A stretch of 64,000 bases of DNA from a virus (lineage: Duplodnaviria > Heunggongvirae > Uroviricota > Caudoviricetes): IMG/VR virus record IMGVR_UViG_646311923_000012; one strand, 5' to 3'. Position numbers: made by a program. Below are positions 21,001 to 27,000 of the stretch, piece after piece. How positions within the stretch are numbered: the stretch's first letter is position 1; each line of letters starts with the position of its first letter.

Positions 21001-24000
21001 CAGCGCTTCGTTACGCCGCTTTTTGTTATCCCACAGCAGACGCATCTTTCCTTTTTCCCACTTCTCCACAAGCTCTTCCGCGACCAGTTGCTGCGCCTCT
21101 GTCTGCGAAAAAATCTCCGGATCATCAGGAAAACGGATGGCATACGACGTGGCTTCATCCGCAGGAGTGGGATCGGCTTTCATACGGGCATAGAGAATTT
21201 CTTTTGCGGTGTCCGTCCCCACTTCACACAGATACACGCCCCGCTGATTGCGGGTTTTCGGCATGGTGATCACCGGCTTGCCATAGACAGATGCGCCTTT
21301 TACCGGCAGCACCCGGAAAACACCGTGTTTTTTTGACCTCTGATAGACAATTTCACCATCGATCCCCCCGGTGTCCCAGCAGACACGGGAAATGGTCATT
21401 TCGGTTCCGTCTGCATGGCAGTATTTTTTGTTGATCGCCGCATCCACACGTAACAGCGTCTCTTCCTCATCGGGACGGCCCATAATGATGATTTTATCCA
21501 CCAGAAAAGCTTCCTCTCCCGGTGCCCATCCCCAGACATACATCTCAAAACGGTTTCGCTGCGAGTCAATGCCCGCCGTCAGATAAACCACCCGGGCAGG
21601 TACCGCCGCCGTGTAATGCACGACCTTATCCATCAGTACCTGGTGATCGAGTTTTTCGCCCACGGCTTCTTCCCAGGTCTCGCCCAGCGTGGTGTTCACA
21701 AAGGTTTTCAGGCCGTTGGGATCTTTCAGTGCATCCAGCCAGTCATAGACTATCTGTACCCAGGTGGTAAACGGACTGTACGCCGTCCAGATATGGAACG
21801 TGATGGAGCGCGGCGGCGGAATTTCATCACCCCGGGCGCTGAAAAACGTCAGACCGTCACGGGTCCACATGCCCGTGTTTTCACAGATCCACCGCCCGTT
21901 GCTCTGGTCCAGTTCAGACTGATGGATCACGCAGCCATGATGTTCACAGAGGTAGAAAACACTTTCGGGGCTGTCCTTCTCCCATTTAAGCCCAAAAGGC
22001 GTGGACTCATCGCCAAATTTCAGATACTGCGCCTCCCCACAGTGCGGGCAGGGCACATAAAAACGCATAAAATGCGCCGACTCGTTAGCGGCTTTTTCGA
22101 TCTGGCAGGTGCCTTTGATTTTAGGCGTCGAGCCGCGAATGGATTTTGGCCACACCGACCCCTCAATACGCTTATCCCCCAGCAGGGTTGGCGAGCCCTC
22201 TTTTTCGACATCCGGCTCGAACGAGGAAAGTTCGTCATAGCAGACCACGTCCACGGATTTTTCACGGTAGTTTTTGGCGGCAGCGCCGCCCAGGCACCAG
22301 AAACCGACGCCCGATGAAAAGCGTTTCAGCGTGAGAGTATTGTCACGATGTTTACGACCCAGCCATGGGGAAAGGTCTTTCAGGCATGGCACGTTCCGAA
22401 TCGTCGCCTCCACGTGAGACTTCATAAAATCTTCAGCGGCAGAATCCGTGGGCTGAAAAAGCAGACTGTTTCGGGATTTATGCTCAATAAAATACCCGAC
22501 CACCCCCAGCAACATCTTTGTATAGCCAACACGGGCAGATTTAATCAGGTTAACCGTGCGAACCTGGTCGTTACCCATACAGTTCATAATGGCGATCTGG
22601 AATGGCAGCGTTTTCCATTCTCCCTCACCATATGAAGATTCTTTAGGCAGATAATAATTTTGATCAGCCCATTCAACTGCCGTCATTGGTACAACCCTGA
22701 CCAGAGGCTGCAGCGCAACCGAAACGGCAGCCATCATATTATTCAGTTGTTGCTCTGATATATTCATCGAGTAAATCCGGTAATTTATCCCCTGCCCGCG
22801 CACACTGATTTGCCCCCTTAGCAATAAGGGTTTTCAGATGGTCAAGATGGCGCGGTGTTAAATCAGGAAACTGTCGCTGCATGGATAAAGGGATGGAATC
22901 AAGCGTACTGGATAACGCCATTGCCAGCTTACTGAGGGCAAAAATACAGAACCCGGTGTCAATAAGTTTTCCTTTTGACACCTCATTTTTTAACTGCTGT
23001 GTAACAGCCTGTTCTGCTGTCAGTTCCCATCTGGCAATAAGCAATTTCTCCTCATAGTCGTCTTCGCTATCGCCATCAGGCACATCGTTTTTACTTCTCC
23101 TCAGATACGATATGTAAAAATCGCGCCAGGCATCCAGATCCAGTTGCCCTCGCTTATTCGATATCGGGGCACCCGGCAATTTCTGCAATCTGCGAAGCTG
23201 GCGATCGGTCAGACTTAAATGCCTGGCAACTTCAGTCTGCGTAGCCACTCCTCACCTCGCAAAAACTCTCACCTCACAATCACAACAAAACCGGTCATGT
23301 CCGGTTTACATGTCTGTTTTTTGTTCATGTCCGGTTCACAGAAGACCTGTTTTTATATTTTTCATATAGTTAACTTGAAGAGAAACCGGACATGGATCCC
23401 GGAAAATTTTCATAAATAGCGAAAACCCGCGAGGTCGCCGCCCCGTAACCTGTCGGATCGCCGGAAAGGACCCGCAAAATGATAATAATTATCATCTGCA
23501 TGTCACAACGTGCATCTACGCCATCAAACCACGAGAAATAATCAATTATTACGCAGGTATCGTATTAATTGATCTGCATCAAATTAGCGTAAAAGCAACT
23601 TCAGATAATACAAATCAGCAACACTGAATACGGGGCAACATTATGTCATCAAAGAACAGAACCCGCAGAACAACAACCCGCAACATCCGATTTCCAAACC
23701 AGATAATTGAACAAATTAACATCGCTCTTGACCTGAAAGGTTCAGGTAATTTTTCAGCGTGGGTTATTGAAGCCTGCAGAAGAAGATTAATTAATGAAAA
23801 ATATTCTCAATTTGTACCCAACAAAGACAAACACGACCAGAGCACCTGTTCAGACAGGTTTACTTAAACGACTTATATATGACACAAAAAGCGACCACTA
23901 AAGTCGCTTTTTCTTATGGTAACAGGCAATAACTCTCTCAGATATTTTTTAGCATTTTTTTGACCGCGCGTTTCCGGACGTATTCTGTTCTCCTGTCCCT

Positions 24001-27000
24001 TTATATCGTCGGAATACCCGCCGCTCTTCAAATCCCATTCCCAACTCAGAATGTAGTCTGTTGACCGCTTGTTTTATTTCGGTCAGGTTCACCGGTGAAA
24101 CCGGAGTCCGGCGCGCCTTACGCAAACACTCTGCTCGTTTCTGTGCCGCCACTTTTCTTTTCTGGTCATCACTTAGCTGTACCATCACTTTTGCCCATCG
24201 TTCAGCTGCTCTCCGGTACAGTCCTTTTTTCTCCAGACATTCTGCCACGTGATCATGTAGCATAAGTGACCTCCGATTATCTACAGACTGCCATCCTGAA
24301 TTTACCTTCCCTTAATGAAATAACAATAAAAAACAAACCACGCAAAAACAATAAAACAACACACAAAAAAACTAAATAATAAACAAAAATAATCACCTTA
24401 TTTTATTATTTTTTGAGGGAGCAATTACTGAACAAAAAACGCTGACTATATACTCAAAACCAAACAACTATTCTGCCAATCAGGTATCATGGCAACACAC
24501 GGAATTACCGTGTTTTTGCCTTCTCTGCCCATACAATACGGGCATATACTTCATTCTCTATTGTAATATTTCTATCCATTTGCCCCACTCCATTTACCTG
24601 TAAATAATATTCAAAATATTTATCACAGAAATCGTTTTTGGCCATGAACTGAGCACACTATAAAGTCCGGAACTGACTCTTTGTTAAATTACCTTAACGT
24701 TACCAGTAACACCTTCATAACAAAACATCACGGTATACACTGGGTACGGATATATTCCTGTGCTCCTTCCAGTTGCTTCTGCATTGCCATCAGCCGTTCT
24801 CTGAGGATGAAATAATCCCGTTCAGCGGTGTCTGCCAGTCGGGGGCCGGTTGCATTATCCACGCCGGAGGTGCCGGTGGCTTCACGCACGGTACCGGAGC
24901 AGGTGGCGTTGATCCGCAGGCGCTTACGACCAGCGGCAACATCAGCACGCAGAGTTTCATTTTCAGCTCTCGCATCGGCTAATTCCCTCGAGTATCTGGC
25001 ATCAAGTGCAGCGACATCACGCTGGCGTATCTGCATATCAGTAATTGTCGCGTTCGCCAGCTCCAGCTCACTGGCTTTTTTATCGCGCTGCTCTTTGTAG
25101 ATGATGGCGTGATCACGGTAATGATTCAGCCCCAGACTAAGCACACCACAGGCTACCAGCAGGACAATAATCACCACACACAGAACACGGTTCATATCCC
25201 CCTCACCCCACCAGCCATGACAAAGTTAAGACGCGCCAGGCAGTGGAAAAGCAAATAGCAACCAGCATTAGTGAAAATGAAATGCCGACGATTACACAGA
25301 GGATCTTCGCCAGCGTTATGAGCTTGTCTGACATGCTTAATCCTCTTCACGATTTCAACGCAATGACCAGTTTTGCCAGCCCATACAGCATCGGAGACAC
25401 AGCAATACCGACCGCCACCCACTTAATAGCAAAAGCCAGCGCTCTGCTGACGTCATCAGTTACAGGCGCTTTCAGTTCAAGGCCGTTTTTCATAGTCAAT
25501 CTCAACAGAATTCGTTTATACTTTCCCATGTTCTCCCTTGCCTTACTCAAGGTCAGAAACACAAAACCCCGTTTGCGGCCAACAAACGGGGTTTTACTTT
25601 TATTCACTTAGTTTTTGCCAGTTCGCAGGATTTCGTGTTATCCGCCAGTGTGAGCAAACCGCATTTTTCAGCAAAATATTCTGCTTATCTGTCAATTCCC
25701 CAGCACGCCAGCGCGCTCTCCTGGTCACGCCGTGAAACCTGACCGTAGCAGTTGTTTGAGCGAATACGGCAGTCTCTGCCACCGTCCTTAATCCACCAGC
25801 GAATCGCTTCGCAGGCACCTTTTAGATCACCTGCATTAATCCGTCTGTAAAACGTAGACGGGAAACACTTACCGGGGCCAATGTTATAAGGACAAAATGA
25901 CGCGATACCCGCCTTCTGGGGTTCGGTCAGCGGTACTTTAATATTGCGCTCCACCCACTCCAGCGCCTTATCACGTTCAATGGCGTTAACCTGGTCGCAT
26001 TTTTCCTTCGACAACTTCATGCCCGGGACGACAGGTTTACCATCCACTCGGGTGGTACCGCGGCAGATGGTCCAGATCCCCGCACCATCACGGTATGCCG
26101 TGGTGTGGTTACCTTCTTTTTCGTCAAGAAACTGGTCGAGGATTTCAGGCGCAGACGCCCCTGCACCAATCAGCGCCAGAACGGCAGCCGACAGGCCGTA
26201 TTTTATTTTTTCGTTCATGGGGATTTATCGATTTCTAATCCCTTGATATGTTAGGTATATAATCCAACACTCATGGTCGCTCTCATAAACATATCCCTTG
26301 AGACGCAGCAGATTACAACAAATGAAGCCATATAAATGAACAGTAAAGAAAGTTTGCGCAGAAGATTTTTACAACTAATGACAGAAAACGTTAAATCAGA
26401 GTTACTTCTTCTGATGGCAGATAATAACGAAGCAACAAGCAGCATTCTTGCAGACCCTTACGGTAAGATCTCACATAAAACGCTGGATATTATTACCACA
26501 ACATTAACACCGCTGATGCTTCAACGGCTGAAACATAATATCAACGCATGGGTTAATGAAGAATTAAGTCCTCCCTGCTTATGGGATTCTCGTTACGCAT
26601 GTCAGCAAAAAATGCGAATTTTCAACTTACTATCACCAAAGCTCAGGTAGCCATAAAATCCTGCCCTTCATGGCATACAGGATTTCAATGGAATCACAAT
26701 GACCAACTCTTGCACAGCTGTATCCCTGACTCCCCGACAACTCAGATTTTCAGTATCTGCTGCTATCTAAAGAGAAAGCGCACAAATGCAAGGGTCTTTC
26801 ATCACGTCCTGTTATTGATTGCCTGTGACCTTTTCTTACCTCATGGAACGTTTTTTCAGTTAGAAATATTCATTTTACAACCAGTTCGTATTGTTTATTC
26901 ATCGACTACTCTCCCCGCGCCACCTTACGACGGTCCTCTCTGATTTTGAAATACAGGTTAGTCAGATACGTCAGCAGGCCAAACAGCAGACTTCCCAGCA

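Follow-up and report, generated by a model that had tools for sequence, protein, structure and literature searches.

A probable pch moron cassette with an exact pchA allele between the Rz gene and cos of a lambdoid prophage

PerC-family regulators and the identity of the 104-residue protein

In enterohaemorrhagic Escherichia coli (EHEC), the genes pchA, pchB and pchC are needed for full expression of ler and of the LEE (locus of enterocyte effacement) as well as for adherence, and Pch binds LEE1 and other virulence loci, where it lowers H-NS/StpA occupancy and relieves silencing (PMC4764244, PMC6265319, PMC4456613). The PerC protein of enteropathogenic E. coli (EPEC) E2348/69 belongs to the same Pfam family and the LEE1 promoter is activated by both; however, EHEC requires pch to express the LEE, whereas EPEC can do without perC (PMC4764244). 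Here, a stretch of 64,000 nucleotides of viral DNA (IMG/VR record IMGVR_UViG_646311923_000012, Caudoviricetes; referred to in its full length as the window) was analyzed with regard to a gene for a protein of 104 amino acids located between the Rz spanin gene and the cohesive-end site (cos) of a lambdoid prophage. The gene is an exact pchA allele, and it very probably belongs to a pch "moron" cassette carried by a lambdoid prophage of EHEC. In EPEC, perC forms part of the perABC operon on the EPEC adherence factor (EAF) plasmid pMAR2, whereas pch would here be a prophage moron.

Several inputs to pch have been described, namely LrhA, Lrp with butyrate, and NtrC (PMC4456613, PMC13012123), and the group 1 pch genes (pchA, pchB and pchC) are strongly induced by an SOS-inducing antibiotic (PMC6265319). 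Within the pchA mRNA the Shine-Dalgarno (SD) sequence is sequestered by an anti-SD sequence in the coding region, a structure which is opened by the small RNA (sRNA) DicF at low oxygen (PMC7769764, PMC7873438, PMC7308464), and DicF is a translational activator of this mRNA (PMC7769764, PMC7873438, PMC9438474). Published work (2004–2019) already covers the Pch protein, the genomic slot of its gene, the target on which it acts and the post-transcriptional control to which it is subject, and the locus offers biology nothing new.

The gene in question (23949–24263, minus strand) encodes a protein with an isoelectric point (pI) of 10.3, residues 1–89 of which match positions 1–89 of the 90-position Pfam PerC model (PF06069; E = 3.8e-44, 149.3 bits against a cut-off of 22.6). 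It also matches phrog_994 (E = 1.4e-45). At all 104 of 104 positions the protein has the same residue as PchA (ECs_1091) of E. coli O157:H7 Sakai, and gap-free alignment likewise gave 103/104 identical residues (99%) with Sakai PchB and 102/104 (98%) with Sakai PchC. With PerC of EPEC E2348/69 the identity is 47% over residues 2–88. A first-pass annotation had noted a resemblance of this protein to the PerC/Pch regulators, which is borne out by the Pfam match and by the full identity to a characterised PchA. Of the checks that it had proposed, the hidden Markov model (HMM) search with Pfam PerC and an alignment with PchA, PchB and PchC were run; the former returned a decisive match in place of the lack of PerC-family similarity that had been named as counting against the assignment. 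The accompanying suggestion that the prophage contributes a virulence regulator is supported by the exact pchA allele together with its pchA-type upstream region.

The protein is widely distributed, with at least 1000 contigs carrying the exact 104-residue sequence, and its UniRef name is "PchABC family transcriptional regulator". In RefSeq genomes with 100% identity across this region, O103:H2 strains among them, its annotation is that of a PerC family transcriptional regulator. Approximately 670 of 5426 complete E. coli genomes (approximately 12%) were found to contain 80% or more of the module from cos to Rz. No second copy of pch was detected in the window by tblastn or blastn, and in the phage collection no sequenced phage was found to carry a full pchABC gene, with only a fragment being present in an EDL933 (ATCC 43895) record. 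No homologue of Pch was found among the sequences of the PDB. It should also be noted that residues 7–47 show a sub-threshold match to the NCBIfam ANR family (AraC negative regulator; E = 0.046; 13.6 bits, with 32 required), which is given as a lead only. In the RefSeq assemblies 99E2750 and UTAK-4 an otherwise identical pch is annotated as frameshifted (316 nt; positions 550–865 of both loci, L010 and L011).

Position and boundaries of the cassette

The late genes of the prophage lie on the minus strand, with the order holin, lysozyme, Rz, pch, ylcI, cosN, Nu1 and the large terminase gene (TerL). Holin (26906–27112), lysozyme (25685–26218), Nu1 (22739–23248) and TerL (20839–22824) were identified by open reading frame (ORF) calls and HMM searches, all on the minus strand. 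The Rz gene (24728–25195, minus strand; Pfam Phage_lysis, E = 8.4e-49), within which an ORF for Rz1 is embedded (24790–24975), forms the upstream bound of the pch cassette. By direct reading (AGGTCGCCGCCC, 23432–23443), the 12-nt cohesive end of cosN is of the lambda type, being GGGCGGCGACCT on the minus strand, and the DNA around it is approximately 91% identical to the cos region of lambda. The two small genes that had been noted between cos and Rz are present as ORFs of 104 and 74 amino acids, the latter being a YlcI/YnfO-family (DUF3950) gene on the plus strand (23643–23867), and the span originally reported for them, 23643–24727, runs exactly from the start of ylcI to the base preceding the Rz stop codon.

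As can be seen from the flanking Rz gene, pch has the orientation of the late operon. The ylcI gene is antisense to late transcription and convergent with pch, the two being separated by 81 bp. Between them lies a hairpin resembling a bidirectional intrinsic terminator (23886–23912, both strands), in which a loop separates the arms AAAAAGCGAC and GTCGCTTTTT. Its stem of 10–11 bp folds on both strands and is flanked by A and T runs, and the element is unchanged across the window and the pchA, pchB and pchC loci of Sakai.

Homology to lambda covers Nu1, cos and roughly the first 50 codons of ylcI, stops at approximately 23790 and is regained at the Rz stop codon (24728). Between these breakpoints lambda carries ybcW-like and ybcV-like genes and bor, whereas the prophage in the window has, within some 940 bp, a variable YlcI tail, the terminator, pch, a T-rich leader and a spacer containing a 46-codon ORF. 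Judged by this sequence comparison, the pch cassette is a moron that occupies the slot classically held by bor, between the Rz gene and cos. Known counterparts are lambda, which has the same slot and a ylcI homologue beside cos, and YlcI/YnfO of the K-12 prophages DLP12 and Qin.

The closest of the described loci is that of pchA in Sakai prophage Sp4, which encodes the same protein and in which the leader, SD, terminator and adjacent Rz are approximately 99.5% identical to those of the window. In Sp4, however, IS629 has taken the place of the side with ylcI and cos, and the block of lysis genes and pch has the opposite orientation with respect to the structural genes, whereas the cassette in the window is intact beside cos and Nu1; a poly-A run also differs, being A7 here and A8 in Sakai. 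PchB (ECs_2182, Sp11) and PchC (ECs_2737, Sp14) differ from the protein by one or two substitutions (V6L; V58M in PchC), and in both of these prophages the order Rz-pch-ylcI-cos-Nu1 is the same as in the window. The adjacency of Rz and pch is therefore seen in all three Sakai prophages, but the full order through cos and Nu1 in Sp11 and Sp14 only. The T-rich leader in the window is of the pchA type, that of pchB being strongly different and that of pchC also unlike it. On the side of cos and Nu1 the window has, for most of the length, the same sequence as Sp14, the pchC prophage, yet the pch allele is pchA. Up to position 26229 the window shares 99.4% identity with the serU prophage that O103:H2 strain 20151001 carries; from 26230 onwards (26230–26870 and beyond) a different mosaic is seen, which is closest to strain 7_12_30A. 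This switch means that the lysis region has a recombination boundary at the pchA cassette.

The assignment of the 74-residue protein to YlcI, as made in the first-pass annotation, agrees with matches above the cut-offs of both DUF3950 (PF13132; 63.8 bits against 25, E = 1.3e-17) and NF041551 (34.5 bits against 30, E = 1.6e-8). Its lambda homologue, which has the same place beside cos and the same orientation, is identical at 47 of 53 residues (89%). The codon changes between the two comprise 13 synonymous and 6 non-synonymous ones, with nucleotide differences of 5, 3 and 18 at the first, second and third codon positions (18 of the 26 being at the third), and this synonymous excess indicates clear purifying selection and hence that ylcI is a real gene. 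Across the YlcI family the N-terminal 50 or so residues are nearly invariant, while the tails are unrelated. The breakpoint of lambda homology falls within ylcI at about codon 50, which suggests that the C-terminal tail of YlcI is set by the adjoining cassette; apart from this variable tail, ylcI is a conserved gene of the lambdoid backbone and not cargo accompanying pch.

Both small genes had been described as DNA-binding-like. For Pch this is documented in the literature (PMC4764244), but for the YlcI-like protein no support was obtained from sequence, profile or structure comparison. The protein is small and basic (pI 10.3) with a sequence pattern resembling that of ribbon-helix-helix proteins, and it gave a weak PHROG match to HicB-like antitoxins (E = 0.0099). 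An AlphaFold2 model (predicted local distance difference test score of 66) contains helices at residues 19–32 and 34–55 and no strand; the best PDB match found with Foldseek had an E-value of 6.9, and when the PDB was searched by sequence and by profile the best E-value was 1.6, none being significant. A ribbon-helix-helix or DNA-binding nature of the YlcI-like protein is conjecture based on this pattern.

The region upstream of pchA and its possible control

The first-pass annotation had described some 450 bp of extremely A-rich DNA (24300–24720) following the 104-residue gene. The compositional skew is real at 24300–24460, where the plus strand over 161 bp consists of 52% A, 24% T, 19% C and 6% G; this tract is the most single-base-skewed stretch of its length in the window, with a maximum of 54% A at 24310. 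The remainder (24461–24720), however, is ordinary AT-rich DNA with 31% A. Its position also has to be read differently: with pch encoded on the minus strand, the tract is located 5' of the gene, as would be expected of a promoter or leader region, and not downstream of it. On the pch strand it is T/G-rich and C-poor and ends 37 nt before the ATG, and by its composition it is probably promoter-proximal DNA and/or the 5' leader of pchA.

The 464 bp upstream of pch are of the pchA type, with one indel and three substitutions distinguishing the window from Sakai Sp4 over 900 bp (approximately 99.5% identity). Within the tract itself the window differs from the DNA upstream of Sakai pchA by a single homopolymer base. 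Among the upstream regions of pchA, pchB and pchC, this same tract is the most divergent segment, in keeping with published work in which LrhA regulates pchA and pchB differently (PMC4456613). Over a leader segment of approximately 225 bp, seven otherwise identical copies have two variable positions only, namely an A run and a single substitution in STEC299. The run in the window is A7 (24365–24371), as in an O145 strain, while Sakai, RM13322, 99E2750 and STEC299 have A8 and UTAK-4 has A9. This variation may be slipped-strand variation, or it may be long-read homopolymer or sequencing error.

Closer to the gene, the sequence GGAGGT can be read as the SD of pch (24269–24274, minus strand), 5 nt before the ATG (24263–24261). 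When the leader was folded, the SD was predicted to pair with coding-sequence positions +24 to +31 with a probability of approximately 0.66, which fits the published self-inhibition of pchA mRNA by SD:anti-SD pairing (PMC7769764). A candidate sigma-70 promoter, TTGCCA-17-AATAGT, is located at 24467–24495 on the minus strand (9 of 12 consensus positions, consensus match alone) and would imply a leader of approximately 200 nt.

The early region of this prophage also contains a DicF sRNA gene (43806–43857, plus strand; Rfam RF00039, E = 2.9e-15, 77 bits with a gathering score of 48), which is situated upstream of a homologue of dicB. The pchA mRNA and the sRNA that activates it are both encoded by a single prophage. 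The DicF copy in the window reads ACAUUUGG where K-12 DicF reads ACGUUUGG.

Taken with the published work, the locus would be expected to function as follows. PchA, a small basic protein, would bind at the promoter region of LEE1 (ler) and at further virulence loci, displacing H-NS/StpA and de-silencing ler, and Ler in turn activates type III secretion together with the effectors of this system. Through its SD:anti-SD pairing the pchA mRNA would be held in a self-inhibited state until the Hfq-dependent DicF relieves it under low oxygen, while transcription of pchA would be stimulated by LrhA and by Lrp with butyrate, with group 1 pch rising upon SOS or prophage induction. The T-rich tract at 24300–24460 may be the AT-rich promoter or leader on which these inputs, and probably also H-NS, act. 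In the lysogenic state pch would presumably be expressed from its own promoter. After induction, read-through from the late promoter into pch could be expected as well, given that the gene is in the orientation of the late operon, and the SOS induction of group 1 pch genes would fit this orientation.

Alternative readings, prophage context and significance

A number of observations weigh against the identification of the locus as an active pchA cassette. The frameshifted annotation of pch in some assemblies may mean that individual copies are inactive, or it may reflect homopolymer assembly errors. Sigma-70-like sites in the region were no more frequent than expected from shuffled sequence, the sole match (24495–24467) being weak. 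A Fourier analysis of AA dinucleotides against 2000 shuffles found no A-tract phasing of 10–11.5 bp in 24300–24400, so that nothing points to intrinsically curved DNA. A duplex between DicF and the leader, calculated in the manner of RNAduplex, was marginal, with 4.5% of 1000 shuffled sRNAs performing as well and the optimum spanning implausibly long loops; the calculation is unusable as confirmation, and the DicF pairing site was not reproduced. Finally, we infer the activity of PchA on LEE1/ler in the source host, the LEE itself being outside the window.

With regard to the gene, it might be asked whether it is a paralogue within the PerC family that belongs with PchD or PchE (groups 2 and 3), which would have little effect on the LEE and act on curli, flagella and other adhesins. 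Every Pch protein matches the same Pfam family, and three Pch groups of differing function are described in the literature (PMC6265319), but with 100% identity to PchA and 98–99% to PchB and PchC across all 104 residues, and with group 1 also matched in length, genomic slot and upstream region, there is practically no likelihood of this, and the full identity to PchA rules out such an identity. It is also very improbable that ylcI and pch constitute a functional two-gene regulatory module in which, for example, YlcI controls pch or cos. Their convergent arrangement 81 bp apart with a common hairpin could be taken in this way, as could the small, basic and ribbon-helix-helix-like character of YlcI and its weak similarity to HicB-like antitoxins; against this, ylcI is found beside cos in lambda and in many lambdoid phages without pch, the breakpoint of homology within the gene assigns it to the phage backbone, and no structural or sequence match of YlcI to a DNA-binding fold was obtained.

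A further possibility concerns the A-rich tract, which might be an independent element, such as an sRNA gene, a small protein gene or a recombination scar, and not the regulatory region of pch. Many sRNAs encoded by EHEC prophages are known, and a terminator-like hairpin is present at 24497–24513 on the plus strand. The spacer between Rz and pch also contains an ORF of 46 codons (24505–24645, minus strand) which matches phrog_2157, a family of unknown function (E = 1.5e-36), and which is intact in four loci, those of the window and the three Sakai prophages. However, this ORF lies outside the extreme part of the tract and is without an SD, and its 11 substitutions are distributed 4, 4 and 3 over the three codon positions and are nearly all non-synonymous, with no excess of synonymous change; such a pattern gives no support to a gene, and the ORF is probably not one. 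Searches against Rfam, at E ≤ 1 over 23200–25300 and at the gathering score over the whole window, found no RNA family in the interval from cos to Rz. Moreover, the tract always accompanies pch and is allele-specific, as would be expected of its regulatory region, and pchA and pchB are differentially regulated by LrhA (PMC4456613). An independent element is consequently considered highly unlikely.

A more speculative extension of the pchA reading would be that the U-rich, C-poor stretch of approximately 160 nt is a discrete and tunable cis-element, be it a landing pad for Hfq or H-NS or a slipped-strand "rheostat", which sets the allele-specific output of Pch and on which the ribbon-helix-helix-like YlcI might act. 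The idea stems from the A7 to A9 homopolymer among otherwise identical copies, in combination with the fact that this segment distinguishes the pchA, pchB and pchC alleles, and is regarded as unlikely.

The wider surroundings agree with an origin from a pathogenic host. At the tail-fibre end of the prophage there is a gene for an NleB-family arginine glycosyltransferase (1–981, minus strand; 697 bits), and just beyond the integrase gene (47272–48291) there is one for EspK (49103–50464, plus strand; 1055 bits), both proteins being type III secretion effectors. The best genome matches of the window were to Shiga toxin-producing E. coli (STEC) of serotypes O103:H2, O45:H2, O121 and O145. Together, the NleB-family and EspK genes and these matches suggest a LEE-positive, attaching-and-effacing host.

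After espK, tail genes of a second lambdoid prophage were found (51226–63994, minus strand), which are 92–97% identical to the tail region of relatives of the first prophage, so that the window spans two adjacent prophages. An STnc100 sRNA (138 bits), a cluster of three tRNA genes and a sok antitoxin RNA (107 bits) were also detected on the minus strand, at 29634–29824, 29904–30150 and 34872–35046. The STnc100 sRNA adjoins the tRNA cluster, the members of which are annotated in homologous prophages as Ile, Arg and Arg. The sok RNA is located in the region of the early/late junction, and a hok-type toxin gene is annotated nearby in two related loci (L003, which is the serU prophage of strain 20151001 mentioned above, and L007).

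The master inputs to ler, and hence to the attaching-and-effacing phenotype of EHEC, include PchA, PchB and PchC. With the gene correctly named, the prophage can be recognised as one that carries a virulence regulator in addition to its type III secretion effector genes and the pchA-activating DicF, and the identification of pchA is of use for annotation and for the inference of pathotype.

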